The position numbers and the translations under genes are program-made. Below, piece after piece: positions 10,944-45,464 of a stretch of DNA of 64,000 bases. Each line of letters starts with the position of its first letter. Positions within the stretch are counted from its first letter, which is position 1. The stretch is from Eukaryota sp. GEM-RC1 (lineage: Eukaryota), in NCBI GenBank assembly GCA_040285855.1, contig JAUFOQ010000002.1:2232001-2296000 (forward strand), read 5' to 3'. The notes beneath the pieces were generated by a model that was given only the letters and a program-made list of their open reading frames with translations, was not told the origin of the DNA and searched no databases.

Positions 10944-12401
10944 GGCTAGATCTATACGTGTGACAAATGAAATTTGCAATTCTTATACGTGTGACAAAAT
11001 GGCCAACTTTTTCTTATACGTGTGACAACTACAATGTACACAGCAATGGTTCTCAACCTTCTATCTTTTCGCAACAACTTCTTGTAATGATGATACATCA
11101 GCAGTGGACATAAAGCTTGTCAACAATGACTTCTTTTGTACTAAATGACCTTAGGTTCCTTAGCTCAATGACCTCCATGGGAATCTTTAGATAAAAGATC
11201 TCCTTGAGTGTTCTCATTGGTGTAGCACAGTCAAAGGCCTCCGTTGTAAACACAAACTTGTTGATCTTAACTCCATTGGCTCGGAGCTTGCTGTAAGCCT
11301 CTTTTATGTGTGGTCAAATCGAGACACTCTTTCTGTATTGAATCATATTCAACAGGTGGGTTCTATACACCCCAGCAGCAAACAAAGCCTCTTAATCTCG
11401 TTTGGAACATGATCACGTGGTTTTTTACAAAGCCTGTTGATATCAAGCAGACTTTCATTGTTTTCCCTTCCAATGTGATGAGTGTGTAACTCCTCTTTCA
11501 ACTCAATTTTGTGCTTTCAAGAGATTCCCTCTTATGTACAACTTCTGTGCTTTGATTTAATCACAACAAAGCTAACACGACTGATTCACACTTAATATGT
11601 ATTGCTCTTTTTTAACTATAAAGATGTTTTTTTGTTGTTCTTTAAAATTCATGATCGAAATTCAAATTCTGTCACACGTATAGGCAGGGGTTGGAAATAT
11701 TGCATTGACAATATATTGGATTGTTCTTTTGGGAAATCAATACAATTATATTGCTTGTTTGGGAAACCAATACAATACTATTGTTCATATTGTATTGGAA
11801 ATTATTGGAGAAGTCATTTGATCGTTTTCAAAAGTTATACTGCATTTAGATGTAACAACAATACTTTACACTCTAAATAAACAAAACAATTCTTACTCAT
11901 CACTATTCGCTTCGTCACCTTCTGGACACCAATGTTGTCCACACATTTCACTGACCGTCGAAAAGATCCCAGAGTTCGTTGCTGTAGTGGCCACACTTCA
12001 GTGTTTTCAGACACCGGGCTATTGGGAGCATCCTCCACGATGGTTTCTCCATCAGCATTGGTGCGGACAAGCCCGTGCTCAAGTCCAAGATATTTGAAAA
12101 ATAGCAGAGGCAACTCCTTGTTTGAGCGGTCTGCCATAGATTGACAGTGAGAGTAGTGAGAAGAGTGAAGTGACTTTATTCTCTTCTAAAACCAATATGA
12201 AATCAATACTGGCAATATATTGCAATACAACAATAAACAGCAATAAGGAACAATACAATACAATACAGGGCTTAAGCTACCAATTGCATATTGGTACCAA
12301 TATATTGAAGATATTGTATTGTCAATGCAATATTTCCAACCCCTGCGTATAGGAAATCTGAAATTCCAAATTCAAATTCTGTCACACGTATAGCCGTTCT
12401 C
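10944..12401 (-). mobile_element. Non-autonomous DNA transposon (9-bp TSD, Mutator-like)
   Basis: TSD CAAATTATG (10935-10943, 12402-12410). Repeated inverted TATACGTGTGACA motifs at both ends. Second, inverted copy at 31868-32637. Confidence 0.75.
11685..12345. mobile_element. hAT-type MITE nested in 10944-12401
   Basis: TIR CAGGGGTTGGAAATATTGCATTGACAATA. 8-bp TSD CGTATAGG (11677-11684, 12346-12353). Absent from the 31868 copy of the host element. Confidence 0.9.
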
Positions 12402-12622
12402 CAAATTATGTTGGAGATAATTTGTAAATTTATGAATTAGTGTGACATCTAAAAAGGACAGATTCAAACACAGTTGAACAGAACCGATTAAACCTGCTAT
12501 GAACTGAACCATTCTAGATTTAACATTTCTACTAGTATATCGTCTTGAGAAAGTTTAAGTATATTATGTTCTTTAGTTGTTTTTACACACTTAATTTATT
12601 CAAAATCTAATAGACTAAACAA

Positions 12623-13780
12623 CTAAAATTTGATATCATTAAAACAACATCCGTCGCTATCAAATCTTACAACAGGTTCGTCCCCATAAAAGGAACTCAC
12701 AGCTAGTAAAGCTTTGGAGATGATTAGGGGAATTGTTTTAAAAACAGTAAAACGATACGATTCAACCATAACGTACGGTCAAAACGTTTGTTCATCCTAT
12801 TTTTTCCGATTTTTCCGAAATCGTTTCAAAAATTTAATGCACTTTTTCCTAAACGGCCATAGATTGAAACAGCAAAAGTGTATACTTCGTAATCAACATG
12901 TTTTACATGCTTTAGAGCCATCAATGGTTTCTTGAACTTATCCTGTTTGGCTTGTTCATAAATGTCTAAAGGGGAAGTTTCAGAGTAAGGATTCTTTAAA
13001 AATGTCTTTTTACAAACATCAACTGACACTACATCGACAACAAACAATTTTTCTGAAGAAGAAATGATAACAACATCTGCCCTTGTTTACCAAATAATTG
13101 GTTCGATTTTTCATCATCACAGTTATTATTTGGTTGGAAAGATCTTAGAAGTGGTTCAACAAATGATTCAATTTTGTAAGACTTACACATAGCATGTATT
13201 AGGTCTCTTACAGCATCATGCATACACGTTCGATAAGTTATGTAGCGATAACAACTTAACAAATGAGAAAACGTTAATTGTTTTCCACAGCTACATTGAA
13301 GATCTTTTGGTAGATTGTAGGGCTTTAAATAACAACGAAGTTCATCGTAGTGGTCCATTGATGATCATTTAATAATAGACCATACACTTGTGGAATTTGA
13401 TTAATTAATGCCACATCAGAACTCTCCTTTAAAACTATTAAAAATTACCGAAAGCTTGATTTTTTCCTTAGCCGAGCTAAGTGTAAAATCTAAACTTTCG
13501 AAATATTTTAATAGATGATTCTACAGCATCTTTAAAGCCAATGTTCTTTAGTGATACGCGATATGTATCAAAATTGTGGAGAAACCTTTCTGCGTTTCCG
13601 AATCGTTTTTGGATAATATACATCCAAATCACAATTTCTCCATTTTTATGGAATTGGAAACGATTTTTTATTTAGACTGTTCTTTACATCTATTCATAAC
13701 GTTCTCATAACATAAATGTTTCAACTCAATAGTGTCGCTTTGGAACGTTTACCTTCAATTGCTTTATTTATTGCAAAACA
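12623..13780 (-). mobile_element. Decayed REL non-LTR retrotransposon, family A
   Basis: ORFs 13029-13358 and 12826-13047 are near-identical to the 1225-1900 translation. Confidence 0.8.
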
Positions 13781-14616: not shown

Positions 14617-14640
14617 TGGAGGAGCAGGGTTTTGATCCCC

Positions 14641-14684
<44 letters not shown>

Positions 14685-14689
14685 CCCCC
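14617..14689 (-). tRNA. trnA-AGC: tRNA-Ala (AGC)
   Basis: GGGGGTG TA GCTC AATTGGTA GAGC G CGCGC TTAGCAT GCGCG AGGTA CGGGG ATCAAAA CCCTG CTCCTCC A. G3:U70 identity pair. Downstream T6 Pol III terminator. Confidence 0.95.
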
Positions 14690-14843
14690 TGATATGTAAT
14701 GCAGTGTTCGGTCCCCGCCTTGTAGCGTATTTGCTATTGTGTATTACAATATGTTATCACCAAAAACAGGATTTATGATCAATCAGTGAAATAAATGCTT
14801 TGCAGAAAACAGTAACTAACATACACTAACTAAAGTATCTAAA

Positions 14844-15450
14844 CTATGATCTTTCACCAAACAACTTACCTAAAATTGAATTAAAATATCTGTGCATTGA
14901 ACGAAACAACGCAAACGTTAACCTACTCAAACAGAAATGTTCATTGAAAACTTTACCGTACTCAGAACACAATTTACCAAAGGAAGTTTAGAAACTCTGT
15001 GCAGCTGGTCCAACATTACCGTATTTCGACATTGCAAATTGAAACACAAAAGAATTGCCTGTCCACGTTCACTTGGTTAATTAAGTGGCAGAACTTTGTA
15101 TTTTTACCTTTTCAGCCACTTCAAGAGCACAAAAATCATCATCAAAATTTTTGGAAATAGATCTTGAATTACAAGGATCAACAAATGTGAAATCCATGAA
15201 AATTTCCTGTCAAGATAATCAAGGACCAATCAAATCACCACGACTTCTATCAACTTTTGGCTGATCGGAAAGATTAGCAAGTAAAGGTTCATTTTTCCAT
15301 GAAAACCATTAGCTTTAAACATATCCAAACAGGTATCCCGGATACTGTTGTGAATAATTGATCTAAAATGAATAAATTGATGACAGTTAACTAAATGATG
15401 AAAATTTGAAGCCTTTGAACGACCACAAGGCCATGGAGAATGCTTCAAGA
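14844..15450 (-). mobile_element. Decayed REL non-LTR retrotransposon 3' fragment, family B
   Basis: CGRS..HHLVNC..IHNSIRDTCLDMFKANGFHGK, followed by frameshifted RGDLIGP and DFTFVDP motifs. Same family as 19726-20325. Confidence 0.75.
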
Positions 15451-17758: not shown

Positions 17759-17842
17759 TGAAGGACTAAAAACAATTTGCAGAAATACAATCTTCAAGAC
17801 AAGAATGTTGAATTTTCTAAGAAAAATCCGTAGCCTAAGAAA

Positions 17843-18311
17843 TAGAGCTCAGGTTGATGAAATCAAGCATCAGATTTCATGGAAAGTCACTTGTGAGAAT
17901 ATGCAAAGACGTATTGAAGTTTCAACCACACATGGTTTTCAAGGTAAGGAATCTGATGTGGTCTATATCAGTACTGTACGTACTTGGCAGAACAATAAAG
18001 AACAAGATTTGCAAAGTTTGGGTTTCTTAACAGACTATCGTCGACTGAATGTTATGTTGACAAGATCCAGGTATGCAAATATTATTTATGGAGATCTAAA
18101 CCTTCTCAAAACCAATGAAATGTGGGAGGTCTTGGTCGGATATTACTCTAATACTTCAGACAACTGCGACACTTATTTTAATAAATCAAAACTTGCAATG
18201 TTGACAGCACAAGCTGCAAGGTTATGTGCTTTTAACGATGACGAGCTCCTAGAAAGCCAATTGGAGCTGTCAGAAAAACATGACGACGACACAATGGATG
18301 ATGTCAATTAG
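17843..18311 (+). pseudogene. UPF1/DNA2/Sen1-like SF1 helicase C-terminal fragment (5' deleted)
   Basis: IEVSTTHGFQGKESD, GFLTDYRRLNVMLTRSR. Near-identical to 41123-41590. Confidence 0.85.
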
Positions 18312-18638
18312 ATTGCTTCATGGATTTAGGTAAGTTTTCCACAGTGATGTGGAATCATTTATACACATAGTTTTGTACTTATAGAATAAATATTGTTTTC
18401 TTTTTTCCAATTTCACATCATATACCATATACTGTTAGTTACAATTAGTGCGACATCAACTGTTGTTGTATCAGTGACATATTCTCAAACTTGTCAAGAT
18501 GTCAACATGTCAATGTAGACATTAACCACAAATAGTTCAAACAGAAATTTAAGATCATTCGCTTAGTGAGATGTCTATCGACTTCGTGTTGGTTAGATAT
18601 CTCACTGTGCTTCGTCTCCCCACTGTCAGGAGCCTTCT

Positions 18639-19700
18639 ATGGGTCTTTTGATCCTCAGATCACTCCTTTGCTTGGTTTGTTGCTTTATTTTTACTCAAGA
18701 CCGTCCGGTCTTCCAGAAGATTTTCATGGGTCCGTCGATCCTCAAATCTCTTCTGTTTTTGTTTTGTTTCTGTTATAGTACTCCATACTGTACTGGTTCT
18801 TGTTGTTCTTGCTGTATTACAAAAACCAAATTAAATCTCCAGTCATCACAATTTCTCCGTGATTTGACTATTGATGGAGACATAGAGTCAAACCCTGGCC
18901 CAGAAACTGCTTTTGTTGGTATTGATCTTCTTGGTGATGAAACATGGCTAGAATCTTCACATTTAAATTTTGGACATCACTTGATAGCACAAAAGTATCC
19001 TTTTGCTGCGGAGATTATAGGAGATTTCGACCCTATGGAGTTTGGCAGAGCTATACGAAATCAAGATAATTTGGCCGATGTTTCTGCAACCATTAAATCT
19101 AAAAATGTTGGTAAAGTGTTAGTAGTAATGCCTATTAATGATGCTATAACTGCATTATTTCTTGGAAGTCATTGGGGACTTGCTATTTACGATCTTGCTT
19201 TGAGTCGCTTGTATTTCGCAGATTCCCTTAATGGAAAAATGTTCTTAAATTCAACGAAAGAACATGTAGCACGTGCTAGCAATCTTTTCATCCTCACAAT
19301 CTAAGTGTACCACAACAAAACAATGACTATGATTGTGGGATTTTTGTTTTATATGTGATTGAAACTTTGTATAAAAGCTTCAATAACCAGCTTTTGAATC
19401 AAGTTGATTTGCAGCATAAACTTCCAATATTGGCGGAGAAAGTGCAATCACTGCAAGAATTGATCAATAACAACGACCCAGAAACTGAGCCAAAACAATT
19501 AGAAGACGCAAAGAATGACTATCAAAATGCCGTCAATCAGTTGATAGTTATTGATTTGAAGTATAAACTTCCAATATCGGCGGAGAAAGTGCAATCACTG
19601 CAAGAATTAATCAATAACAACGACCCAGAAACTCAGGTAAAGCATTTAGAAAAGGCACAGAATGACTATCAAAATGCCATCAATCAGTTTTACACAGAAT
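18639..19700 (+). CDS. Hydrophobic/Cys-rich leader + 2A peptide + Ulp1/C48 protease (variant a; frameshift ~19300)
   Basis: LRDLTIDGDIESNPGP (D-x-E-x-N-P-G-P at 18879-18902). PINDA..SHWGLAIYD, FADSL, then VPQQNNDYDCGIFVL in the next frame. Confidence 0.8.
19404..19689 (+). repeat. In-frame tandem duplication, period 147 nt (49 aa)
   Basis: DLQHKLPILAEKVQSLQELINNNDPETE... is repeated as DLKYKLPISAEKVQSLQELINNNDPETQ... Confidence 0.9.
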
Positions 19701-19725
19701 ACAATCGGTTGTTAGGTTTAAGTCA

Positions 19726-20325
19726 TTGTACCGCATTCACCACATGTCAATTCGATTTATCTTATCAAATCTTATCTTTAGTCTTCGAGATACATGTTTG
19801 GAAATGTTTAAGGCAAATGGTTTCCATGGCAAAGTCGAACCATTACTTTCTCATCTTTCAGATCACCCTGATTCTACTCAGAAACGTGGTGATTTTATTG
19901 GCCCTTGGTTGTCATGCCAAGAAATTGTTGTTGATTTTACGACCGTTGATCCTTGCAAAGCTTCAGCTATTGCCAACATTTTGAATCCCTCAAATGATCC
20001 GCTGAAAGACGCTGAGAACGCCAAAGTGTCTAAGTATGGACATCAAGTTGCTGCATTGAATTCACGAAGACACAATAATATCGTCTTTCAGCCTTTTGCA
20101 GTTTCATTGTACGGAAATTTCGGTTCTTCTACCAAGGAGTTTTTAAGTTTATTTGAAAATTTGTGTTCAGAACTTGGCAAGAAGTTTAACAGATCGTACT
20201 GGAAGAGTAAATTTGCTTTTTCGATTTTTAGGTCTATGTATAGATATGTTGATTCCATTTTGTCCAAGTTGTTTGGAGGCAACTACTTTTCGGAATTAGG
20301 TAGTTCGTTTGATAATTTGTTTTAA
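19726..20325 (+). CDS. REL endonuclease domain of family B non-LTR retrotransposon (no RT upstream)
   Basis: LRDTCLEMF..EPLL..RGDFIGPW..VVDFTTVDP..AENAKVSKY..FQPFAVSLYG. Confidence 0.8.
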   Translation: MYRIHHMSIRFILSNLIFSLRDTCLEMFKANGFHGKVEPLLSHLSDHPDSTQKRGDFIGPWLSCQEIVVDFTTVDPCKASAIANILNPSNDPLKDAENAKVSKYGHQVAALNSRRHNNIVFQPFAVSLYGNFGSSTKEFLSLFENLCSELGKKFNRSYWKSKFAFSIFRSMYRYVDSILSKLFGGNYFSELGSSFDNLF

Positions 20326-20355
20326 TAGTGTTTATCTATTTGTACTTAACTTATT

Positions 20356-21402
20356 ATGTGTTTTTCTCCGCACATAAATCCGTTTTTTTCTTATCAAACT
20401 TTTGATCCCACAGTATACAGGACTATGTTAAATAATGAAATAAGGAAATACCTAGGGTTACCTACTGATGTTCATTCAACCCAATCTCAACAACAAATGA
20501 ATATATCTGTTGGTACTTCTGAAATATCTCAACCTTCAACTCTTATGTCATCTCCTGATGAAATTCCAGATTCAAATCCCAATGCTCTGACACAAAGTGA
20601 ATTACAACAGGTTTCAGAAGCAATCCAATCTTTGTCTCCTGATGGATGGATTGTCGACGATTGTGTTAATTGGTACTCTCGACATTTGATGGAGATATAT
20701 GGAGTTGATTTAAACGCCTTTGTAACTCCTGGATCTGTTCAATCATTTTTAGTTCATGAAAATCAATCTCTTCACCAATTTTTCATCAACAAAATTATTC
20801 AGGCAAATTCTAGATATCTGTTTCTTCCTATAAATGACGCATTGATTAACGAAAGTTCTGGTTTACATTGGGGTTTGATTGTAATCGATACACATGATGA
20901 ACTTTTCATCTTTCTCGATCCTCTTTATGATGTTGAAGATCACAGACAAGATGTTGGTAAGAATTTACATGAAATTAATTCGTTTTTGAATCAAGTTATT
21001 TCGAAAGTAGATGAAACTCTTCATCAACTCAATTATCGACTCATTATTGTTCCAGTGATAGAGAAGCAAACACCAAATGATTGTGGAATTTATGTTCTTG
21101 AGTATATGAGAGGACTTTTAGAACTTCTCACTTCACATGAATTATCAGATCAACCTCTTATTCAAGCTGCTGGTATATTGTTGCAAAACTCTATCAATGC
21201 TCAAGAGAGTAGGCAAGTAATAAAATTGTATCTTCAATCTTTACAACCGACTATAGTTCCACCTACACTTCCTCAGCAACAACATAGTAGATCGGACACT
21301 GGAAAGAAAAAATCTCCCAAAACTAATCAACCTGCTGGAAAAGAAATAAATCTTGCGATTCTGAACCTTCTACACGTATGTCATCTCGTCGTAAAACTCT
21401 AG
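20356..21402 (+). CDS. Ulp1/C48 cysteine protease (variant b), probably N-terminal part of the exo-Fanzor polyprotein
   Basis: WIVDDCVNWY, LFLPIND..GLHWGLIVID, FLDPL, KQTPNDCGIYVL (H-D-C triad with oxyanion Q). Confidence 0.85.
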   Translation: MCFSPHINPFFSYQTFDPTVYRTMLNNEIRKYLGLPTDVHSTQSQQQMNISVGTSEISQPSTLMSSPDEIPDSNPNALTQSELQQVSEAIQSLSPDGWIVDDCVNWYSRHLMEIYGVDLNAFVTPGSVQSFLVHENQSLHQFFINKIIQANSRYLFLPINDALINESSGLHWGLIVIDTHDELFIFLDPLYDVEDHRQDVGKNLHEINSFLNQVISKVDETLHQLNYRLIIVPVIEKQTPNDCGIYVLEYMRGLLELLTSHELSDQPLIQAAGILLQNSINAQESRQVIKLYLQSLQPTIVPPTLPQQQHSRSDTGKKKSPKTNQPAGKEINLAILNLLHVCHLVVKL

Positions 21403-24400
21403 AAGTAACTAATAAAATTTCATCAAGTTATTCTTCTTCATCTGACACATCCGTCAAAAACTCAAAAGCACGACGACTAGAGCGAAAACCAAAAAAGTGT
21501 CATTCGTCAGAAATTCATCGTCCGCAAGAACAAGTTTCTAAACGTCAACAGAGACTGTATAACCAATCTAGTGGTTGTACAAAATTCCCGAAAACTGACG
21601 AAGAATGTCAAAGCTCGCAAGTAGTTGATGGTTCAACTGATTCTTTGAATGAATTTCCTGAAATTCCAGTTGTTAAAGGAAAAAAGGAAAAAGAATCAAG
21701 AATTCCATTTATTGACATTGCAACTGATACTGTTGTTGATGACAACCTTCCTACAGTTTTTATAATTGATATTGAAACAAGAAATATCAATGAGAGAATT
21801 CCTACACGAGTGAACAAAGAATTGAATGAACATCGTAGAACGGAAAAGAGTCTTTGAAACAGAGAAGATCTCTAATGAATGATTTTGAGAAAGAAGCTCA
21901 CGACCTTGATTTTCTCGCAGATCAACAAATCATCATGATCTCTGTCATTATTGCAAAATTGCAACCCAATGGTGAATTACAATTTGACAGCTCAATCGTT
22001 ATTTACACTGACTACAACTATAAAATCAAATTCAGTGAATCAGAAACACCAGCTTTTCAATTAGATCTTTTGGACTTCCCAAATGAAAATGAATTATTGG
22101 TTAAGTACGCTAATATTGTTAGTCAATATAAACCAATTGCTTTTATTGGACATAATATTTTCAATTTTGACTTGCCCATAATTGACAATAGAATGTGGGC
22201 TCTTGACCTTCCTCTTTTAACAAGTCCAAATCCAATTCAGTTACCTTTACACAGTAGATGGCTGGATATCATAAAAGATCACAATGGTTTTACAGTTTTG
22301 GATACCTTTTGTTTGCAAAGAAGTATATTGGTCTCAAGTATGGTTGTAGTCTAGCCAATTTATCTTGGAATTTACTTTCTGAACCTAAATTGAAATTGGA
22401 TAAAGACTTGGATCACTTACTCCCAGTTGATTGTTTAAGAAATGATAAAAGAATGAAAACTCTAATCAACTACTGTCTTCATGATTCAATTTCGGCGTTT
22501 AAATTGTTTATTTTATTTCAAAAAGACAAAATTGTTTTTCAATCATGGGCTTCTATTAAAACTTCAGTTGTTAGTGTGGTAAAACATCAAGAACTTCAAG
22601 TTGCCATGCTTTTAGGATCTCAGTTCTACAATGCTTTAAGACAACAGACTACAATGTGTGTTAAAGAATATTTGTTGGCTCGCTATCGTCTTGGACAAGA
22701 TTTGTCTCAGTTTGATTACAAGTTGTTTTATCATACAATGCTTTCAATTAGAAATCTTTCATCTGAAGTTCATGAATTCAAAATTCCAAATAATCATCCT
22801 ATATCAAGAATTGATATAGATCTTCGTGATTTTGTTGCTGGAGAAGGAATCTATACTGCCAATTCAAACTACCCCGGATATAAGCACTGTGTCACTGATA
22901 CATTTGGCACATATCATATACCAGAACTTGATTTTGATCACATCAGTAGAGCTTTTGAATACACCACTCAGTATGAAATGTGGCCTGCGTTTGAACTAAA
23001 TATCCGCCGCAATTATGAGTTGTACATTAAAAGATTTATCAATACAGTAATGGGTAAGAAGGAGTTTGAAAAGGGAATGAAGAAGAAACGTAATTTGGTT
23101 TTAGGTCCAGAACTTGCAGGACTAACAGGACGTGAAGCTCAAAAGTTCACTAGTTACTTCAGATTTCGCTTAAAGATATTGAAAGATCAGATTTTGTATC
23201 GACCTAGAGATGAAGCCTTACAGTATATTAATTCTTTTAATTCTGCCACTCACCCTGAAAACGTTAAGTTTATTGATGAAGTTTCTAAAGTTTTTGATGA
23301 TGATTTCAGTATGTTAATATTTGACCAGATTAATTCTCTCATGGCTGATAAAATTCCAGAATTACTTCAAAGATTTAACATCATATTTCCTACTTCAATC
23401 TCTACAAACGACAATGAAACTGTGGACGTCCTTAATTTACTTTACACAGTTCAGGAGTACCCACTTCATTTTCTTAGAAATTCTCTTCAAATCTCAGATT
23501 ACTTGGAATCAAAGGGTGCTAAGTTGTATAATGTAATTCCTCTAAGTTTAGAGAATACTCCCTGTTTTTTCCCAATAGATACTAGAACTCTTTGGGGACT
23601 GGCTAAGCACTGTTTTGGATATAAGAACAATAATAAGAAGACTGGTCCTTTACATTCAAAAGTGACTAATTACATGTCTGCTAATCAGATCACCAACATG
23701 ACCCATTCTCAACAACAAGATTACTGGAAAACATGGTTTAACTGTGAGGACAGAAGTTTTGAGAAAGCCAATTTTGAATTCAACAACTATGCTGTAACTG
23801 ATGGAATTTCGCTTTGTTTTCAATTTGTGAGAAAGGATCTGAAAGGAATGAAATGTAAACCTGATTGAAGTAAAGCTTCAGTAAAAGTACAATATTTCAA
23901 TGAATGTGATAGGTCTGATTTTATTTCTAAACAAATGGTTTATGTGGACATTGGAAAGAGAGATATGCTACAACTTGCATCTAAATCAAATAGGGAAACT
24001 CAAAATCCTCTAAAGAAATACAACTTCTTACGATTGACGTATGCTGAGTGGTCTAGAGTTTCAAGAAAGCATAAAAGAATCCACCAGTACCTTGTTAGAA
24101 GGAGATCAGGTACTAGTCCCTCAGGTCAGACGAAGACTATTGAGGAATGGAACACTTGGTTAGGTGAAGATCACAATTCCAAAACTGTTAATTACAATAA
24201 ATTTAGAAAGTTTATTCTGGCTAAATGTATTCACTACAATGCAACTAAAGACTTCTATGCTTTGCATATATGGAGGATTCACAAAATCCAAAATCATGTT
24301 CATAAGCAAAAGACAGAGTCTAAATTGGTTAACAGCATTGTAAAAACTTTTGGTAAGCGTGACAAAATCGTACTACATGTATTGGTGATTTAGGCCAGAA

Positions 24401-24807
24401 GCCAATCACCAACTTAAAACACAGTCCACCATCCAGAACTAAGACTTGGACTTCATTCTTTCAGAGAAATGGTTTTCTAACAGTGTTGAATGATGAGAGA
24501 AACACTTCGTCAAAGTGTCCAGAATGTCATGAAGATGTTTTTGAAACTTCCATTGAGGTTGTCAACCCAAAGCCCAAATCCAGAGAGAAAAGAGAATGGA
24601 TTCATCCACATGGCTTACTAGAGTGTAAGAGCAAACATTGTCTGGGAGAAGTCAAGAAACGATTGAAAGAAAAAAAGAAAAGGGCATACAGTGCCCAGTC
24701 AAATGTATTGGAATCGCAACAAGATGGCTTGTTTGAACATGATGAACATGTTCGAGCATTGGATGAGTGGTAGTTATGAGAGAGTGGAGTATTTGTGTAG
24801 AAATTAG
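21378..24807 (+). pseudogene. DEDDy 3'-5' exonuclease fused to Fanzor1 (copy 1; frameshifts plus TGA at 23866)
   Basis: ExoI IIDIET, ExoII GHNIFNFD, ExoIII YCLHD. Fanzor1 motifs PIDTRTL and YAVTDGISL, RuvC-I VYVDIGKRD, RuvC-II NDERNTSSKCPEC, HGLLECKSKHC. Shifted frame gives YWNRNKMACLNM...ERVEYLCRN*. Confidence 0.85.
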
Positions 24808-24883
24808 CTTTATGTATTTTTGTTAGCTGGCTGGTGAAACCCGGCCATATTTGGTTAAGTCCATGAGAAAAAGATTCTATCTG
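24780..24883 (+). ncRNA. Candidate Fanzor omegaRNA (scaffold to 24863 plus flanking guide)
   Basis: Non-coding tail conserved between copies. Hairpin TGGCTGG-TGAAAC-CCGGCCA (24828-24847). Homology ends abruptly at the element end. The 5' boundary is a guess. Confidence 0.55.
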
Positions 24884-25609: not shown

Positions 25610-26242
25610 ATGGTCTTTTCTAGGTCTGCTTCACTCATAAATTTGAATCCAAGTAGTACAAATCCTCAATCAGGGTCTCGTCATAAAGATATTCCGTTGA
25701 AGTACAGACATGGTAGAGGTATGGTGAGCAACTTTGTGGCTCAACAGAAGATCTCCAACATCTCTGATCCAAACTCATCAGCCTGCTTTGTGGAAGACAT
25801 GTTTACTCCAGAGCCAGTATCTCCTTTGAAACAATCTCCCCCCAAACAATTGCAAAAGTCGCAATCTAGAACCAGTCTGTTCACAAATGGGTCCAAAAAT
25901 CTCTCTTCACCTTCGTTGCTTCTGAGACGTAGTAAAAGCAATTTAGATTTAGGAATACGATCGCCAACGGGCTCTAATCTGACATTGAACACGAGTAGGT
26001 CCTCAGCCGCTGACTCAAAACCTCAAGAGGATAAATCGTTTCTCTCTAACCCTAAACACATGACTCTTACCATTCCTGAACCAGAATCTCCTGTGACGCG
26101 TGATAGATCAATGACGTCACTCTTTGGTAATGGCAGTTCTAGTGCAAACTTCTTTAAGCTTTCGTCCACAATCATTGAATCAGCGACTCGAGATTTAGAT
26201 CTGGATTCTCCGGTATCCCCCCTTGCGTTTGACGATTTTTGA
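25610..26242 (+). CDS. Ser/Pro-rich hypothetical protein, paralogue of 33121-33753
   Basis: Shared FSRSASLINLN, RHKDIPLKY, EDKSFL.NP, NFFKLSSTIIESAT.DLD, FDDF*. Both are 210 aa. Confidence 0.8.
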   Translation: MVFSRSASLINLNPSSTNPQSGSRHKDIPLKYRHGRGMVSNFVAQQKISNISDPNSSACFVEDMFTPEPVSPLKQSPPKQLQKSQSRTSLFTNGSKNLSSPSLLLRRSKSNLDLGIRSPTGSNLTLNTSRSSAADSKPQEDKSFLSNPKHMTLTIPEPESPVTRDRSMTSLFGNGSSSANFFKLSSTIIESATRDLDLDSPVSPLAFDDF

Positions 26243-31867: not shown

Positions 31868-32637
31868 GAGAACGGCTATCCGTGTAACAGAATTTGAATT
31901 TCGAATATGAACTTTATGGATCAACATAAAATCATCTTTATAGATCAAAAAGAGCAATGTATATTATGTGTGAAACATCGTGTTAGCTTTATTGTGATCA
32001 AGTCAACGCACAGAAGTTGTACATAAAAGGGAATCTCTTGAAATCATAAAATAGGTAACAGAGGTGAGATATACACTTATCAATGGAAGACAAGGCAATG
32101 CTACGAGTGTGTGTGCGTGATAACAACAGGCTTCGTATACGTGATCATGTGGCAAACGAGATTAAGTGGCTTTATTTGCTGCTGGGATGCAAATAATCCA
32201 GCTGTTGAATATGATTCAATAAAGAAAGAGTGTTTCGATTTGACCATACATCAAAGACGCTTACAGCAAGCTCCGAGTCATTGGAGATAAGTTCAACAAG
32301 TTTGAGTTTAAAAAGGAGGCCATTGATGGTTCTACACTAATGAGAACACTCAAGGAGATCTTTTGTCTAAAGATTCCTAGGTAGGTCATTTAGTACAAAA
32401 GAAGAAAGTCTCCTTCAAACGAGGTCAAACAAGTCATTGTTGACAAGTTTTAATTCCACTGCTGATGTATCATCATATACAAAAGAAGTTGTTGCGAAAG
32501 GAGTAACATGTAGAATGTTGAGAACCATTGCTATGTACAATGTACATTGTAGTTGTCACACGTATAAGAAAAAGTTGGCCATTTTGTCACACGTAAAAGG
32601 ATTTCAAATTTCAGTTGTCACACGTAGAGATCTAGCC
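31868..32637 (+). mobile_element. Second (inverted, uninterrupted) copy of the 10944-12401 element
   Basis: Ends GAGAACGGCTAT... and ...GTCACACGTAGAGATCTAGCC. Internal sequence homologous to the reverse complement of 11000-11600. No TSD visible. Confidence 0.8.
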
Positions 32638-33120: not shown

Positions 33121-33753
33121 ATGCCGTTTTCTCGTTCTGCATCACTTATAAATCTGAATCTAGGTTGTACGAGTCCTTCGTCAGAATCTCGCCACAAAGA
33201 TATACCACTGAAGTACTGGCATAACAAGGCATCGCCGAGTAACTTTGATACCCAACAAAAGAGCAGCAATGCTTCAGATACAAAGGGAGACTCCGGTGCT
33301 TGGTTTTCAGAAGACATCGTTTCTCCTTCAAGACAACCTCCACCAAAACAACTTCTCAAATCACAGTCTTTTACCACTGTGTTGCCAAGTAGTGGACCCA
33401 GAACTTACCACCCCCGTTCATTACTTCTGAGGCGCAACCAAAGTAGTACTTTACTTGGAATCACGTCACCGTCTAAGCCCAGCTGGATGTCAGAATCCCA
33501 CCGATCTTCGCTAACTGATTCAACACCAAATGAGGAAGATAAGTCGTTCCTTACCAATCCCAGACACAACATTCTCCACCTTTCTAAGCCAGAATCTCCT
33601 TGCGACAGATCAATGTCATCCCTCTTTGGTGACGGTAGCTCTAGTACAAACTTCTTCAAACTGTCGTCCACAATCATTGAATCGGCAACACAAGATCTTG
33701 ATTCGGATTCGTACGTGTCTAATCTGTCACTCTCTGGCTTTGATGACTTTTGA
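33121..33753 (+). CDS. Ser/Pro-rich hypothetical protein, paralogue of 25610-26242
   Basis: See 25610-26242. Confidence 0.8.
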   Translation: MPFSRSASLINLNLGCTSPSSESRHKDIPLKYWHNKASPSNFDTQQKSSNASDTKGDSGAWFSEDIVSPSRQPPPKQLLKSQSFTTVLPSSGPRTYHPRSLLLRRNQSSTLLGITSPSKPSWMSESHRSSLTDSTPNEEDKSFLTNPRHNILHLSKPESPCDRSMSSLFGDGSSSTNFFKLSSTIIESATQDLDSDSYVSNLSLSGFDDF

Positions 33754-35844: not shown

Positions 35845-36074
35845 TAGATAAGGGTAAGGAAAGGACACTACGAGGTTTTCAAAATTGAGGAGTTCTAATA
35901 GAGAAAAAGGTAGTTGAACGGTTGAATCTATTTAATTCTTATTTTAGTTCAATTACTAATAATTGTGATACAGAAAGAATATTGGATTTCTCTCCAAAAG
36001 ATAATCACAAACCACTTCTAACGAAACTTAAAAATATATTTAATATATTTATTGATGAAAAATGTGTATTTTTT

Positions 36075-36175
36075 GGATTGTTCTAATAGAGAAGTGGACT
36101 TAACCAAATATGGCTGGGTTTCACCAGCCAGCTAACAAAAATAAAACTAATTTCTACTCAGATACTCTACTCTCT
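36075..36175 (-). ncRNA. Candidate Fanzor omegaRNA, copy 2
   Basis: Hairpin TGGCTGG-TGAAAC-CCAGCCA (36111-36130), conserved tail to 36095, then divergent flank CTTCTCTATTAGAACAATCC. Confidence 0.55.
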
Positions 36176-39100
36176 CATCACTACCATTCATCCAGTGTTC
36201 GAACATGTTCATCATGTTCAAACAAGACATCTTGTTTCGATTCCAATACATTTGACTGGGCACTGTATGCCCTTTCTTTTCCCCCTTTCAATCGATTCTT
36301 TACTTCTCCCAGACAATGTTCACTCTTACACTCTAGTAAGCCATGTGGGTGAATCCATTCTCTTTTCTCTCTTGATTTGGGCTTTGGGTTAACAACCTCA
36401 ATAGAAGTTTCAAAAACATCTTCATGACATTCTGGACACTTGGACGAAGTGTTTCTCTGATCATTCATAACTGTTAAAAAACCGTTTCTCTGAAAGAATG
36501 AAGTCCAAGTCTTAGTTCTGGATGGTGGACTGTGTTTTAAGTTGGACATTGGCTTCTGACCTAAATCACCAATACATAGTACGATTTTGTCCCGCTTACC
36601 AAAAGTTTTTACAATGCTGTTAACCAATTTAGACTCTGTCTTTTGCTTATGGACATGATTTTGGATTTTGTGAATCCTCCATATATGCAAAGCATAGAAA
36701 TCTTTAGTTGCATTGTAGTGAATACATTTAGCCAGAATAAACTTTCTAAATTTATTGTAATTAACAGTTTTAGAATTGTGATCTTCACCTAACCAGGTGT
36801 TCCATTCCTCAATTTTCATTGTCACAGTTATTGGATTATCATCACCTGCTCTCACGGTAGTAGTACCTGATCTCCTTCTAACAAGGTACTGGTGGATTCT
36901 TTTATGCTTTCTTGAAACTCTAGACCACTCAGCATATGTCAATCGTAAGAAGTTGTATTTCTTTAAAGGATTTTGAGTTTCTCTATTTGATTTAGATGCA
37001 AGTTGTAGCATATCTCTTTTCCAATGTCCACATAAACCATTTGTTTAGAAATAAAATCAGACCTATCACATTCATTGAAATATTGTACTTTTACTGAAGC
37101 TTTACTTGAATCAGGTTTACATTTCATTCCTTTCAAATCCTTTCTCACAAATTGAAAACAAATCGAAATTCCATCAGTTACAGCATAGTTGTTGAATTCA
37201 AAATTGGCTTTGTCAAAACTTCTGTCATCATAGTTAAACCATCTTTTCCAGTAATCCTGTTGTTGAGAATGGGTCAAGTTTTTAATCTGATCAGTAGACA
37301 TGTAATTAGTCACTTTTGAATGTAAAGGACCAATCTTCTTATCATTATTCTTATATCCAAAACAGTGCTTAGCCAGTCCCCAAAGAGTTCTAGTGTCTAT
37401 TGGGAAAAAACAGGGAGTATTCTCTAAACTTAGAGGAATTACATTATACAACTTAGCACCCTTTGATTCCAAGTAATCTGAGATTTGAAGAGAATTTCTT
37501 AGAAAATGAAGTGGATACTCCTGAATTGTGTAAAGTAAATTATGAACGTCTACAGTTTCATTGTCGTTAGTAGTGATTGTAGCAGGAAATATGATGTTAA
37601 ATCTTTGAAGTAATTCTGGAATTTTATCAGCCATTAGAGAATTAACCTGTTCAAATATTAACATACTGAAATCATCATCAAAAACTTTAGAAACTTCATC
37701 AATAAACTTATCATTTTCAGGGTGAGTGGCAGAGTTAAAAGAATTAATATACTGTAAGGCTTCATTTCTAGGTCGATACAAAATCTGATCTTTCAACATC
37801 TTTAAACGAAATCTGAAGTAACTAGTGAACTTTTGAGCTTCACGTCCTGTTAGTGTTCTGGACCTAAAACTAAATTACGTTTCTTCTTCATTCCCTTTTC
37901 AAACTCTTTCTTACCCATTATTGTATTGATAAATCTTTTAATGTACAACTCATAATTGCGACGAATATTTAGTTCAAACGCAGGCCACATTTCATACTGA
38001 GTAGTGTATTCAAAAGCTCTACTGATATGATCAAAATCAAGTTCTGGTATATGACATTGGCAAATGTATCAGTAACACAGTGCTTATATCCGGGGTAGTT
38101 TGAATTGGCAGTATAGATTCCTTCTCCAGTAACAAAATCACGAAGATCTGTATCAATTGTTGATATAGGATAATTGTTGTAAATTTTGAATCCATGAACT
38201 TCAGATGAAAGATTTCTAATTGAAAGCATTGTATGATAAAACAACTTGTAATCAAACTTAGACAAATCTTGTCCAAGACGATAGCGAGCCAACAGATATT
38301 CTTTAACACACATTGTAGTCTGTTGTCTTAACGCATTGTAGAACTGAGATCCTAAAAGCATTGCATCTTGAACTTCTTGATGTTTTACCACACTAACAAC
38401 TGAAGTTTTAATAGAAGCCCATGATTGAAAAACAATTTTGTCTTTTTGAAATAAAATAAACAATTTAAACGCCAGAATTGAATCATGAAGGCAGTAGTTG
38501 ATTAGAGTTTTCATTCTTTTATCATTTCTTAAACAATCAACTGGGAGTAAGTGATCCAAGTCTTTATCCAATTTCAATTTGGGTTCAGAAAGTAAATTCC
38601 AAGATAAATTGGCTAGACTACAACCATACTTGAGACCAATATGCTTTTTTGCAAACAAGAAGGTATCCAAAACTGTAAAACCATTGTGATCTTTTATGAT
38701 ATCCAGCCATCTACTATGTAAAGGTAACTCAATTGGATTTGGATTTGTTAAAAGAGGAAGGTCAAGAGCCCACATTCTATTGTCAATTATGGGCAAATCA
38801 AAATTGAAAATGTTATGTCCAATAAAAGCATTTGGTGTATATTGATTAACAATATTAGCGTACTTAACCCATAATTCGTTTTCATTTGGGAAGTCCAAAA
38901 GATCTAATGGAAAAGCTGGTGTTTCTGATTCACTGAATTTGATTTTATAGTTGTAGTCAGTGTAAAGAACGATTGAGCTGTCAAATTGTAACTCACCATT
39001 GGATTGTAATTTTGCAATAATGACAGAGATCATGATGATTTGTTGATCTGCGAGAAAATCAATGTCGTGAGCTTCTTTCTCAAAATCATTCATTAACAAT

Positions 39101-39590
39101 CTTCTCTGTTTCAAAGACTCTTTTCCGTTCTACGATGTTCATTCAATTCTTTGTTCACTCGTGTAGGAATTCTCTCATTGATGTTTCTTGTTTCAATATC
39201 AATTATAAAAACTGTAGGAAGGGAGTCATCAACAACAGTATCAGTTGCAATGTCAATAAATGGAGTTCTTGATTCTTTTTCCTTTTTTCCTTTAACAACT
39301 GGAATTTCAGGAAATTCATGCAAAGAATCAGTTGAACCTTCAACTACTTGCGAACTTTGACATTCTTCGTCAGTTTTCGGGAATTTTGTACAACCACTAG
39401 ATTGATATATACAGTCTCTGTTGACGTTTAGAAACTTGTTCTTGTGGACGATGAATTTCTGACGAATGACACTTTTTGGTTTTCGTTCTAGCCGTCGTGC
39501 TTTAGAGTTTTTGACGGATGAGTCAGATGTTTAAGAATAACTTGATGAAATTTTATTAGTTACTTCTAGAGTTTTACGACGAGATGACAG
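36147..39590 (-). pseudogene. DEDDy exonuclease-Fanzor1 fusion (copy 2; several indels)
   Basis: Same motifs as copy 1. RuvC-II reads NDQRNTS and RuvC-III reads WNRNKMSCLNM. It reads through the 23866 stop and the 22310 and 24375 frameshifts of copy 1. Confidence 0.85.
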
Positions 39591-40765
39591 ACGTGTAGTA
39601 CTTTCAGAAGTGTCAGAAGATTTATTTCTTTTCCAGCAGGTTGATTAGTTTTGGAACATTGTGTCTTTCTTCTATCAGTAGAAACTTGAGTTGTTTGTTG
39701 AACTTCCATTGTTTGTTGTACAATTTCTCCAGACAAGATTGAATTTAAAATTTGTTGAGCAACAGATCGATGTTGACCAGTGTGAGTGTCAATGATGAGA
39801 TTCAAAATCATTTTCCTCATTTCTAGAGCATCATATTCATTGAACAATCGAACTTGAAGTAGAATTACATTGATATCTAGTGACGCTTGTTCAAATTCAA
39901 CAAATTTACTCATGTACTCTAAAATAAAAGGTCCACAGTCACCTTGTGTTTGGTGTTGAGTTACGAAAAGCCTTCCTAAATAATGATAATTGAAAGGAAA
40001 AAACACACGCTCATGAAATTGTCTAATAACATCTTCGCAACGACCTAAAGTATCTGAAAACTTTTGATGTTGATTTTGAGTAAACATTGGATCAAGGGAA
40101 TAGTATCTTTTTCTCTTAATATCACAAATCAACAGAGTCCAGTGAGTAGCTTCATTATTAAAGAAACCATCGTTTATTGGAATAAACAAATATTGTTTGG
40201 TTGGTGGTCTGGAAGAATTCATCAAATCTAAGGTTTCTTGAAATAGTTTGTGAAGATGCCAACGATCTCTTTCTTCTTCAGCCAAATTGTCCTCTGTTAT
40301 TGCAACTGACAATGCTTCACACGAGAGATATGAACATTTAACACTATGTTCAGTAATGTATTGTCCATAAAAGTCTACAATAGTGGTCCATAACCAACTA
40401 TGAGGTAGCAAAGAATCAATATTGGAATGATTTTCAATTAGATCGGGTCCAGGATTAGACTCAATGTCCCCGTCCATAGTCAAATCACGGAGAAATTGTG
40501 ATGACTGGAGATTTATTTTGAATTTTGTAATGCAACAAGCACAACAAGAACCACTACAGTATGGAGTACTATAACAAAAACAAAAAAGAAATAGAAGAGA
40601 TTTGAGGATCGAGGGACCCATGAAAATCTTCATAAAGACCTGACGGTCTTGAGTGTAATGACAAAAGAAAACAAAAACAGAAGAGATTTGAGGATCGACG
40701 GACCCAAGAAAATCTTCTGGAAGACCTGACGGTCTTGAGTGTAATGACAAAAACAAACCAAGCAA
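39566..40765 (-). CDS. Leader + 2A peptide + Ulp1/C48 protease (variant c)
   Basis: LRDLTMDGDIESNPGP (40445-40468). LFIPIND..THWTLLICD, SLDPM, HQTQGDCGPFIL. Confidence 0.85.
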   Translation of the reverse strand: MLGLFLSLHSRPSGLPEDFLGSVDPQISSVFVFFCHYTQDRQVFMKIFMGPSILKSLLFLFCFCYSTPYCSGSCCACCITKFKINLQSSQFLRDLTMDGDIESNPGPDLIENHSNIDSLLPHSWLWTTIVDFYGQYITEHSVKCSYLSCEALSVAITEDNLAEEERDRWHLHKLFQETLDLMNSSRPPTKQYLFIPINDGFFNNEATHWTLLICDIKRKRYYSLDPMFTQNQHQKFSDTLGRCEDVIRQFHERVFFPFNYHYLGRLFVTQHQTQGDCGPFILEYMSKFVEFEQASLDINVILLQVRLFNEYDALEMRKMILNLIIDTHTGQHRSVAQQILNSILSGEIVQQTMEVQQTTQVSTDRRKTQCSKTNQPAGKEINLLTLLKVLHVCHLVVKL

Positions 40766-41122
40766 AGGAGTGATCTGAGGATCAAAAAACCCATGGAAGG
40801 CTCCTGACAGTGGGGGAGACGAAGCACAGTGAGATATCTAACCAACACGAAGTCGATAGACATCTCACTAAGCGAATGATCTTAAATTTCTGTTTGAACT
40901 ATTTGTGGTTAATGTCTACATTGACATGTTGACATCTTGACAAGTTTGAGAATATGTCACTGATACAATAACAGTTGATGTCGTACTAATTGTAACTAAC
41001 AGTATATGGTATATGATGTGAAATTGGAAAAAAGAAAACAATATTTATTCTATAAGTACAAAACTATGTGTATAAATGATTCCACATCACTGTGGAAAAC
41101 TTACCTAAATCCATGAAGCAAT

Positions 41123-41914
41123 CTAATTGACATCATCCATGGTGTCGTCGTCATGTTTTTCTGACAGCTCCAATTGGCTTTCTAGGAGCTCCTCATCGTT
41201 AAAAGCACATAACCTTGCAGCTTGTGCTGTCAACATTGCAAGTTTTGATTTATTAAAATCAGTGTCGCAGTTGTCTGAAGTATTAGAGTAATATCCGACC
41301 AAGACCTCCCACATTTCATTGGTTTTGAGAAGGTTTAGATCTCCATAAATAATATTTGCATACCTGGATCTTGTCAACATAACATTCAGTCGACGATAGT
41401 CTGTTAAGAAACCCAAACTTTGCAAATCTTGTTCTTTATTGTTCTGCCAAGTACGTACAGTACTGATATAGACCACATCAGATTCCTTACCTTGAAAACC
41501 ATGTGTGGTTGAAACTTCAATACGTCTTTGCATATTCTCACAAGTGACTTTCCATGAAATCTGATGCTTGATTTCATCAACCTGAGCTCTATAAGGAGTT
41601 AAAATTGCAATTGATTCAACTGTAATATTGGCATTCATGAATTCAAGAACATCATCAACAATGGTCTGTGCTTCAGCCACATTGAGTAAGCTACCAGACA
41701 ACTGGTCAGAGTAAATTGCTGTTGAGCGCAATGTATCTACAAACCTTCTTCGTGGAATATCTAATAAATTGGTAGGTTCAACAGTTTCAATTTTCGAGTC
41801 ATACCAATATTGATTGGAAAAGTGCCACAATTCTTTACACTGACGATACTGTGGCATCAAAGTCGTGGACCGTTGTTCAAAGTCTTTCATTGTACCCTGT
41901 AAATGCGGGAACAC
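41123..41914 (-). CDS. UPF1/DNA2/Sen1-like SF1 helicase, C-terminal RecA2 half only
   Basis: LMPQYR, FSNQYWY, NVAEA, IAILTPYRAQV, HGFQGKESD, RRLNVMLTRSR. No Walker A/B. Confidence 0.88.
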   Translation of the reverse strand: MFPHLQGTMKDFEQRSTTLMPQYRQCKELWHFSNQYWYDSKIETVEPTNLLDIPRRRFVDTLRSTAIYSDQLSGSLLNVAEAQTIVDDVLEFMNANITVESIAILTPYRAQVDEIKHQISWKVTCENMQRRIEVSTTHGFQGKESDVVYISTVRTWQNNKEQDLQSLGFLTDYRRLNVMLTRSRYANIIYGDLNLLKTNEMWEVLVGYYSNTSDNCDTDFNKSKLAMLTAQAARLCAFNDEELLESQLELSEKHDDDTMDDVN

Positions 41915-42080
41915 AATCTGAGGATCAAAAGACCCAAGGAAAGTGTCCCTAAGACCTGATGGTCTTTTAGATTTGAAAGAAGAAGATCAGAGAAAAGAAT
42001 ATCAGAGTTGAGAAGAATGCGGGAACACAATCTGAGGATCAAAAGACCCAATGAAAGTGTCCCTAAGACCTGATGGTCTT
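41901..42080 (-). repeat. Two copies of a double-hairpin repeat unit (also at 40595-40800 and 18638-18752)
   Basis: AAGACC-n4-GGTCTT-n14-TGGGTC-n4-GATCC-TCARAT. Confidence 0.8.
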
Positions 42081-42530
42081 GGAAAGGAGAGAAAAGAATA
42101 TTAGAGAAAAGAAGATCAGAGTTGAGAATATGAGAGAAAAGAAGGATGCGGGAGACAAGAACAAGACAGAATGAAACAGAAGAGATAGAAAAGTAAGTAA
42201 GACGACACATGAAACAAAACAAATGATATGGCATAAGGTCAGATGCTTCTTGGTTTGAGGAACATATTCTCTTCCTACAGTGGGTTATCACTATTTCTTA
42301 GGCTACGGATTCTAAGATTTCTCAATTTCTTTAGATTTTATGGTCAAACCAAAACTTACTTTTGTTACAGGAAATCCTAACAAACTTCGTGAAGAAGTTT
42401 CTTCTCTAGACTCGGATCAACTTTAAGCAGGTCGTGAAATTGATTCACACCAAACATACATTTTGGAGCCGTTATCATTGAGAATTGTACAATTGGCATG
42501 GTAATACAAACTGATACATTCTATAAATAC

Positions 42531-42987
42531 CTATGTTCGGAGTCACCTCAACACGTGTTGAATGGTGTTGGTCAGAACTTCAACACGTGTTGGATATGTC
42601 ATTCTTCTATGTCACTTCAATGAAATTGGCTAAATTTCTACTGTTCTTGATAAAACTATATTGACTAAAGGTAGAAAATTCAAGTTTACTTAAATGTATG
42701 GATTATTGATGAGCTTTTCATGTTATCAGTTCTGGAATCGTTTAAAATCAGTGTTGGTGTCATGACTCATCAGGACCTTTACCCCAAAATAAATTCACTT
42801 TCCTCTAATCATATGAATATAAGACCAACATCAGTTCTAATTTATCAACTTGGTTCGGGTGTAACATGAGTGAAAATGGATGTGTTTTTCTGTTGGTTGA
42901 TCTTAAAGTGAGTTATTCTGTTCTTCTGCTCAGAATTTATTCAACACGTGTTGAATATTTTCCAACACCGTGTTGAACCGAACATAG
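42531..42987. mobile_element. MITE with 8-bp TSD
   Basis: TIR CTATGTTCGG/CCGAACATAG. TSD ATAAATAC (42523-42530, 42988-42995). Palindromic TCAACACGTGTTGA repeats. Partial inverted copy at 45465-45794. Confidence 0.85.
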
Positions 42988-43094
42988 ATAAATACAGTTT
43001 CACGCTAAATAGATCAATAATTTTGACTGTGATAGCCATTGCAGGGAACGCCAATACATATATATATTTTGCACTATTTTCCATGTGCAATATT

Positions 43095-43727
43095 CAGGGC
43101 TCTTCAAAACTGAATTGACAATCAGTTAATTGAAAAATTGATTGGCAGCTGTTTTTCAGCCCCAATTAATTGGGGTGTGTTTTTAGCCTTAACTTAGCAA
43201 ATTTTGGTCAGCATTGTTGCCAATTATCCACAAACAGACACTTGAAGAATTTTCACATTTTATCCTTTAACCTATCCCAAAGACCTATTCCTTAAATGGT
43301 TTGACCAAATGACCGCAAAACTCTTGTTCTCGCGCTCTTCACCGATCACGACTTTCGATCTCTTGATCGAAAAGGGACTCCGTACAAATGCTGTTGTGAA
43401 ATGGTCGGGCATCAACAAAAAGTATGACCAACACATGAATATATCGCTCTTTTTGAGATTTAGCAGCTCTTTATGTTACATTAAGGACTTTAGAACATTG
43501 TGATCTACAAATGTTGTCGACGAAAGTTCGGACGAACAGTGAAAATTATTTTAAATTATTTTAGATTGTATTTATAGATAATTATAAAACATTAACTTTG
43601 AACTTTGTTTTGTTATGTCAGTGAATATGATGAAAAACAATTGGCAATTAATTGCAATAATTGGAAAATTGATTGGGAGCTATTTTCCGATTTCAATTAA
43701 TTGCCAATTCAGTTTTGAAGAGCCCTG
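43095..43727. mobile_element. hAT-type non-autonomous element
   Basis: Perfect 23-bp TIR CAGGGCTCTTCAAAACTGAATTG. TSD GCAATATT (43087-43094, 43728-43735). Confidence 0.9.
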
Positions 43728-45460: not shown

Positions 45461-45464
45461 TATG

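Follow-up and report, generated by a model that had tools for sequence, protein, structure and literature searches.

The stretch of DNA analysed here (hereinafter the window) comprises 64,000 nt of Eukaryota sp. GEM-RC1 (contig JAUFOQ010000002.1, positions 2,232,001 to 2,296,000), and comparison of the window with itself reveals one element present twice, on opposite strands (copies A and B; Table 1). The constant unit of this element is predicted to be a PolB-type DEDDy exonuclease joined directly to a Fanzor1 nuclease, while proteases, a helicase and a 2A motif behave as swappable front modules. The exonuclease-Fanzor1 architecture is apparently undescribed. An earlier note on this DNA had proposed an RNA-guided protein of three enzymes; its observation is partly confirmed and its interpretation partly supported by our analysis. 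Specifically, the order protease, exonuclease, Fanzor1 on one strand holds in both copies (Pfam matches to C48 and DNA_pol_B_exo1, PDB profile match to SpuFz1), and the motifs listed in the note (H-D-C, IIDIET, GHNIFNFD and YCLHD) are present in each, as is the 2A motif DGDIESNPGP.

The C-terminal region is assigned to Fanzor1 by predicted fold and catalytic layout, in agreement with the note. A profile search against the PDB matches SpuFz1 (E 7.5e-14), and the region has the Fanzor1 fold with WED, REC, RuvC and TNB domains. The RuvC-I Asp lies in VYVDIG in both copies and is kept across the clade. The RuvC-II Glu, in NDERNTSSKC, is found in copy A and six paralogs and is replaced by Gln in copy B; a RuvC-II Glu in rearranged position, six residues ahead of the zinc finger, is part of how Fanzor1 is defined (PMC13565253). 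The C4 zinc finger (TNB), KCPEC and LLECKS.HC, is present in both copies, with a weak match to PF07282 (E 0.014). Asn takes the third RuvC position in both copies (WNRN, aligned with WNRD of SpuFz1), so that the literal 'RD' of the 2013 Fanzor motif is unmatched in the window copies. Neither this Asn nor the Gln of copy B was remarked on in the note. Asn occupies RuvC-III in all ten clade-like matches where the position could be read, compared with Asp in 98 of 150 matches overall. A RuvC rendered dead by Asn was considered, and is made less likely by GtFz1, in which an Asp-Glu-Asn (D-E-N) RuvC is active (PMC11423790).

All three exonuclease motifs (ExoI DxE, ExoII NxxxD and ExoIII YxxxD) are present in both copies despite frame breaks. 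The note had called them intact; they are complete as residues and split over three frames in copy A and two in copy B. The domain has a PolB exonuclease fold, and its sequence and fold matches are exonuclease domains of DNA polymerase B. There is no polymerase domain: Fanzor directly follows the exonuclease, and an NCBIfam match to Pol II covers only the exonuclease part and falls far below the cut-off. The junction between the two domains is in frame, as claimed, with YCLHD leading into the Fanzor N-terminus with no linker in open reading frames (ORFs) 22258-23868 (A) and 37969-39129 (B). Both domains are under purifying selection, the ratio of nonsynonymous to synonymous substitution (dN/dS) between copies A and B being 0.31 for the exonuclease (p 0.0056) and 0.22 for Fanzor (p 3e-13); that of the linker is 0.41 (p 0.078).

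Relatives of the element were collected from protein databases and are numbered here with a P. The window proteins fall in an 18-member cluster at 90%, whose listed named members are 'Eukaryota sp. GEM-RC1' hypothetical proteins (NCBI), GEM-RC1 being an unclassified eukaryote. A profile of P0008 and P0012 matches 576 proteins at E <= 0.001 and 15 at <= 1e-30, and the ten organism labels looked up are of three related kinds (GEM-RC1, TZLM1-RC and TZLM3-RCL). A hidden Markov model (HMM) of the clade exonuclease matches nine of the 150 listed proteins; all seven of them whose labels were looked up bear one of these three. In seven long Fanzor1 matches from outside, Pfam finds no exonuclease or protease. 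In a FastTree phylogeny of the Fanzor C-terminal half, which took 99 of 109 rows (ten were dropped as too short), 14 of the 15 lineage rows form one branch (Shimodaira-Hasegawa support, SH, 99); the truncated P0206 lies outside it and is placed with P0066 on long branches. Between seven subfamilies, the exonuclease domains share only 20-40% identity, so the fusion is old and conserved. All exonuclease and RuvC motifs occur within one predicted protein in P0051, P0200, P0201 and P0218, and P0008 has the three exonuclease motifs in one frame. A search of the ESM Atlas with whole P0201 gave no usable match.

What precedes the exonuclease can be read in ten informative proteins; other relatives start too late, within the linker or beyond it. 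Three (P0066, P0209 and P0224) have a C48 protease and no intervening 2A. In six (P0008, P0061, P0205, P0206, P0218 and P0221), 2A stands directly before the linker or exonuclease, and P0221 has a protease upstream of its 2A. The remaining one, P0200, is a predicted protein of 2,027 residues with a DEAH-box helicase, linker, exonuclease and whole Fanzor1, and no 2A. The protease of P0066 is recognized by motifs and a weak HMM match, with no Pfam match. P0209 extends to the Fanzor end without linker and ExoI, and its predicted fold is uninformative on the protease, with a predicted local distance difference test score (pLDDT) < 50 at residues 1-322 and most of 335-498. In P0224, two tandem proteases, similar to the ones in copies B and A, are fused to an exonuclease of a different subfamily. 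A weak search for the linker in longer proteins, with P0008 hidden in another cluster, found none. The three-enzyme protein of the note is thus seen as one predicted protein in P0209, P0066 and P0224, and only its exonuclease-Fanzor part is constant. Because the protease is absent or upstream of 2A in 6/10 and a DEAH helicase takes its place in 1/10, protease delivery by a programmable Fanzor, as proposed in the note, cannot be the defining function of the family.

All three window proteases exceed the Pfam cut-off for Peptidase_C48, two of them at 20350-21402 (A) and 39566-40837 (B). Each copy therefore has a C48 protease, as noted earlier; it is not the same sequence, the copy B protease having 30% amino-acid identity and no blastn match to copy A protease 2. 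A profile of the three matches SENP8 (E 1.2e-13) in the PDB ahead of SENP1 (6.8e-7) and Ulp1 (1.5e-5), while P0224 alone as query gives only weak matches, SENP5 first (E 0.0017). With a lead of six orders of magnitude, the profile is closest to SENP8/NEDP1, which literature abstracts describe as NEDD8-specific, and the function suggested before, deSUMOylase, is not favoured. The 2A motif D(V/I)ExNPGP, a predicted ribosome-skipping site, is present in both copies, and variants occur in eight relatives, four of which have His replacing Glu.

In copy A, 2A is not followed directly by the protease that the note had named. Protease 1, a likely coiled-coil repeat and the nested insertion of 629 bp precede protease 2, and the ATG at 20356, taken as the start, lies inside the 3' tail of the insertion. 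Because the flanks of the insertion share one reading frame, copy A once read 2A, protease, spacer, protease. The insertion is the 3' piece of a separate multicopy element, an 18-member family, one member of which extends along this 3' tail and diverges beyond it. It has no Pfam match, and we take it to resemble the zinc-knuckle and restriction-like endonuclease (RLE) end of non-long-terminal-repeat (non-LTR) retrotransposons. A second remnant of the same multicopy element lies at about 14734-15380 (-), beside a tRNA gene at 14617-14689.

The two copies are mosaic. Helicase fragment and spacer are 98% identical, the 2A leader 84%, the proteases are unrelated as DNA, and linker, exonuclease and Fanzor are 94% identical. 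Copy A is without 700 bp that precede the helicase fragment in copy B, and the alignment has 4-bp microhomology there. The note had expected one consensus ORF of about 1,400 residues after 2A. The span from 2A to the stop is indeed about 1,432 codons in copy B, but three breaks are common to both copies, so that neither reads the other through at these sites: protease to linker (break 1, about 21340 in A and 39630 in B), ExoI to ExoII (break 2, about 21845 and 39125) and zinc finger to RuvC-III (break 3, about 24680 and 36280). Private lesions are a stop at 23866 and breaks near 22309 and 24375 in copy A, and a stop near 39533, breaks near 38057, 37854 and 37017 and the RuvC-II Gln in copy B. 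With these lesions, both window copies are probably inactive.

Most of the shared breaks probably are homopolymer under-calls. Of the seven GGAAAAGA sites that copies A and B contain, six are frame breaks; A5 runs are relatively rarer in copy A (A4:A5 65:9, versus 638:228 in the rest of the window, p 0.007), a deficit exceeding what its few breaks alone account for; and paralogs read through break 2 (P0008 and P0053) and break 3 (P0012). Introns were rejected as the cause of break 2, across which P0008 and P0053 encode residues; host introns appear by eye to be 27-31 nt. At break 3 the shift required, worked out by hand, is +1, so programmed -1 frameshifting was rejected there.

The element is, by the features examined, neither a terminal inverted repeat (TIR) transposon nor a retrotransposon, and its predicted protein is not a polymerase. 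In copies A and B, no TIRs were found (the ends agree at 12/40 and 15/40 positions), nor was a target-site duplication at the junctions. No element ORF has a Pfam match to a transposase, reverse transcriptase or HUH family. The 3' hairpin and lack of duplication fit a Helitron, the CTRR end is absent, and the element may be non-autonomous. Of non-LTR retrotransposon features, the Fanzor element itself has no reverse transcriptase, A-rich tail or duplication. Among metagenome and viral contigs, no related locus was confirmed. The hairpin lies 17 nt from the 3' end in both copies and, as far as two copies can be compared, is kept through a G-U/A-U change. Apart from a tRNA, Rfam gives no credible match over 14000-46500. 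The putative guides have no other perfect match in the window. The candidate guide of 14 nt beyond the 3' end of copy B (36080-36093 (-)) recurs about 190 bp downstream, at 35892-35905, upstream of a phosphodiesterase gene.

The reading that we favour, with our confidence evenly balanced, is guided cutting of empty insertion sites with exonuclease trimming of 3' ends, after which repair copies the element back. By analogy with characterised Fanzors, in which a transcript running over the 3' end supplies scaffold and flank-derived guide (PMC13565253), an omegaRNA would extend over the 3' hairpin into flanking sequence, and the latter would serve as guide. A D-E-N RuvC, presumably active as in GtFz1, would cut some way into the guide-matching flank. 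Because the cut falls inside this flank, one broken end would bear a short 3' tail beside the element that is unmatched by the donor, and the tethered proofreading-type exonuclease would remove the mismatched tail on the spot. With TnpB-type systems, cutting of an empty site leads to gene conversion that puts the element back (PMC13565253, where sequence-specific cutting, and not homing itself, is given for Fanzor1). In yeast gene conversion, invading 3' ends can be trimmed back by the proofreading activity of Pol delta (PMC9477423). SENP8-like proteases and helicases would be interchangeable, co-translated accessory cargo, staying fused or freed by 2A, and would act on host NEDD8/ubiquitin-like pathways, which would not be what the guide is for.

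Several points weigh against this reading. Homing would account for retention and not for spread to new sites, in an element without a Pfam transposase match. The exonuclease substrate is only predicted to be DNA and may be RNA. For the 3' region (120 nt), the predicted fold does not beat that of shuffles (z 0.34 to -1.04). As gene models, the relatives may owe some of their joins to predicted introns. Break 1 is read through by 0/15 listed members of the window's subfamily. Because six of the eight copies reaching break 3 stay in the frame that loses RuvC-III, with only P0012 reading through, this lesion may be real and widespread in the subfamily.

A broader possibility, to which we give a low but real probability, is that of a transposase-free RNA-guided element in which exonuclease-Fanzor cuts and trims and host recombination copies. 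Its front would be a virus-like plug-in expression platform, with structured repeats, 2A and swappable SENP8-like proteases and RNA helicases, through which various enzymes could be tethered to a programmable eukaryotic DNA binder. We consider it rather unlikely that the fused exonuclease instead matures the guide, trimming the 3' end of read-through omegaRNA to guide length and leaving Fanzor1 to cut DNA in the ordinary manner. DEDD enzymes include RNA 3' trimmers, and the rigid, constant fusion would suit such a role. Fanzor omegaRNAs also reach 14-15 nt into the variable flank, and their 3' end has to be defined (PMC13565253). However, sequence and fold matches of the exonuclease are DNA polymerase B exonucleases, and other Fanzor1 matches do without such a domain. 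We doubt quite strongly that Fanzor is a nuclease-weak RNA-guided DNA binder, repurposed like TldR, with the exonuclease or cargo as effector. The prevalence of RuvC-III Asn in the clade and the loss of RuvC-III by frame in many copies of the window's subfamily are consistent with it, whereas the RuvC-I Asp and RuvC-II Glu kept across the clade and the activity of GtFz1 argue for a working nuclease.

An obligate protease-exonuclease-Fanzor polyprotein, bringing deSUMOylase and trimming to guide-chosen loci and so escaping silencing, is distinctly improbable. The module order of both window copies, the 2A-free joins of P0066, P0209 and P0224 and the recurrence of Ulp1/OTU proteases in many transposons (PMC2836005) speak for it; the position of 2A in 6/10 informative proteins, the DEAH helicase in 1/10, and proteases that differ between copies and match SENP8 best, though P0224 alone leads to SENP5, speak against it. 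Very unlikely are joins that are incidental throughout, made of decayed fragments that a gene-capturing transposon collected and gene prediction stitched together, and without a joint function. The helicase fragment, nested insertion and many lesions of the window, the mosaic copies (98% 5' end, unrelated proteases, 94% 3' end) and relatives that are gene models would all fit. Yet the linker-less exonuclease-Fanzor junction recurs in subfamilies that share only 20-40% identity and come under three organism labels, keeps its frame in the window DNA and is under purifying selection, so that incidental joining is tenable only for the front modules.

Structured repeats of one motif occur seven times in the window, versus 0.01 expected, upstream of the helicase fragment and 2A. 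The motif has a fixed inner hairpin and internal loops within outer stems of three sequences, all pairing. Seven of 14 pairs change on both sides, and 0/500 shuffles reach this covariation score, although the copies are related. It has no Rfam match and did not parse by hand as a hammerhead. Two metagenome matches (L001 and L002), near-identical around the motif, are taken as chance, having no other similarity to the element and no Rfam family. Possibly the motif is a promoter, translation or protein-binding signal.

Compared with the Fanzor1 proteins SpuFz1 (8GKH), PpFz1 (9CF0) and GtFz1 (9CER), the predicted protein has a ~250-residue exonuclease where the solved proteins begin, D-E-N fixed across the clade, and 2A-linked protease or helicase modules upstream. 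SpuFz1 has 30-nt TIRs (PMC10432273), unlike the element here. Helitron2-borne Fanzor1 elements (CRe-1, 2 and 3) are similar in being non-autonomous Fanzor carriers that end in a 3' hairpin and vary in their 5' parts (PMC3627910); in contrast, the two copies here have no RepHel, no clear asymmetric inverted repeats and no target-site duplication. Unlike the family B DNA polymerase exonuclease (PF03104), the domain here is joined to an RNA-guided-type nuclease body. The protease shares the C48 H-D-C triad and the pattern W...PIND...HW.L with SENP8/NEDP1 (1XT9 and 2BKQ). As an accessory protease in a mobile element it is analogous to the Ulp1 domains of Ginger1 and Mutator (Ulp1 and OTU domains are known to accompany Ginger1, Mutator and Helitron elements; PMC2836005), but it is attached to exonuclease-Fanzor rather than a DDE transposase, is single or tandem, and is swapped between copies. 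The 2A resembles that of non-LTR retrotransposons (L1Tc, APE-type), with D(V/I)ExNPGP near the start of a transposon ORF (titles cited in PMC12338488), whereas here it belongs to a Fanzor element without a reverse transcriptase match and may stand on either side of a protease.

No natural fusion of Fanzor or TnpB to an exonuclease or protease was found in literature titles and the opening lines of abstracts, although supplements and Repbase may hold some, nor among main-text terms of the available parts of PMC10530073, PMC3627910, PMC10711439 and PMC13565253; 'fused' and 'fusion' do not occur in the main text of PMC10432273 as available. Within this literature, described Fanzor1 proteins are stand-alone nucleases carried by transposons, and no description of the present architecture was found, in line with what the note had said of it. 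The clade is old and diversified, has a predicted second nuclease domain whose catalytic residues are kept, and tolerates whole enzymes at the N-terminus. Nature thus offers a parallel to exonuclease-Cas fusions made by engineering, and a permissive fusion site on Fanzor1 is indicated. Clade-wide D-E-N extends the single case of GtFz1. The exonuclease can be inactivated alone, which makes it testable what eukaryotic Fanzors do once they have cut, and whether homing accounts for their persistence; because unbroken relatives exist (P0201, P0051 and P0218), reconstruction is unnecessary.

Table 1. Features of element copies A and B (window positions).
Feature	Position	Strand	Evidence and remarks
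Element copy A	17825..24863	+	5' 21-mer and sharp 3' end in common with copy B
SF1 (superfamily 1) helicase C-terminal fragment, Upf1/IGHMBP2-like (A)	17842..18311	+	Pfam AAA_12 E 8.4e-20
Two structured repeats upstream of 2A (A)	18634..18747	+	
2A-like predicted ribosome-skipping motif DGDIESNPGP (A)	18873..18902	+	Motif match
C48 protease 1 (A)	18903..19400	+	H, D, C motifs; Pfam C48 E 2.6e-6, C-terminal part; frameshift near 19290
Two 147-nt repeats, likely coiled-coil spacer (A)	19404..19689	+	
Nested 629-bp insertion (A)	19760..20398	+	10-bp target-site duplication at 19760-19769 and 20389-20398
C48 protease 2, SENP8/NEDP1-like (A)	20623..21240	+	H-D-C intact; Pfam E 1.2e-9; PDB profile
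Low-complexity linker (A)	21345..21740	+	Frame differs from protease 2
PolB-type DEDDy exonuclease (A)	21741..22554	+	Pfam PF03104 E 3e-13; ExoI 21762, ExoII 22148, ExoIII 22471; breaks near 21845 and 22309
Fanzor1 body (A)	22555..24807	+	PDB profile match, motifs; RuvC-I 23938, RuvC-II Glu near 24495, C4 zinc finger, RuvC-III WNRN 24709; stop at 23866, breaks near 24375 and 24680
3' hairpin (24829-24846) and conserved end, candidate omegaRNA 3' part (A)	24829..24863	+	
Element copy B	36095..42311	-	Self-comparison, end alignment versus copy A
Two structured repeats upstream of helicase fragment (B)	41916..42056	-	
SF1 helicase C-terminal fragment (B)	41123..41986	-	Pfam AAA_12 E 1.7e-36; TIGR00376 E 4.9e-30
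Three structured repeats upstream of 2A (B)	40600..40799	-	
2A-like motif DGDIESNPGP (B)	40445..40474	-	Motif match
Single C48 protease right after 2A (B)	39791..40441	-	H-D-C intact; Pfam E 2.1e-10
Linker (B)	39228..39626	-	In-frame stop near 39533, two compensating indels
DEDDy exonuclease (B)	38413..39227	-	Pfam E 2.4e-11; break near 39125
Fanzor1 body (B)	36147..38412	-	RuvC-II = Gln; RuvC-III WNRN; breaks near 38057, 37854 (7-nt deletion), 37017 and 36280

The window is otherwise AT-rich eukaryotic DNA with intact host genes for tubulin, a DEAH helicase and a P-type ATPase (Pfam). A 1,268-codon ORF at 59883-63689 (+) has no Pfam match. A Mutator-like element (MULE) transposase with SWIM and CCHC fingers (Pfam) lies at 5233-7194 (-), 10 kb from copy A. 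Long inverted repeats (~340 bp, 88-91%) at 42531-45794, 220 bp off the 5' end of copy B, enclose an unannotated 260-codon ORF (44493-45275). Further repeat pairs with 73-88% identity are 1092-2035 and 12595-13541, 10944-11683 and 31876-32637, and 26010-26208 and 33515-33710. At 34046-35860 (-), a response-regulator receiver domain is joined to a cyclic-nucleotide phosphodiesterase (Pfam) in a gene with apparent introns of 27-31 nt (by eye).

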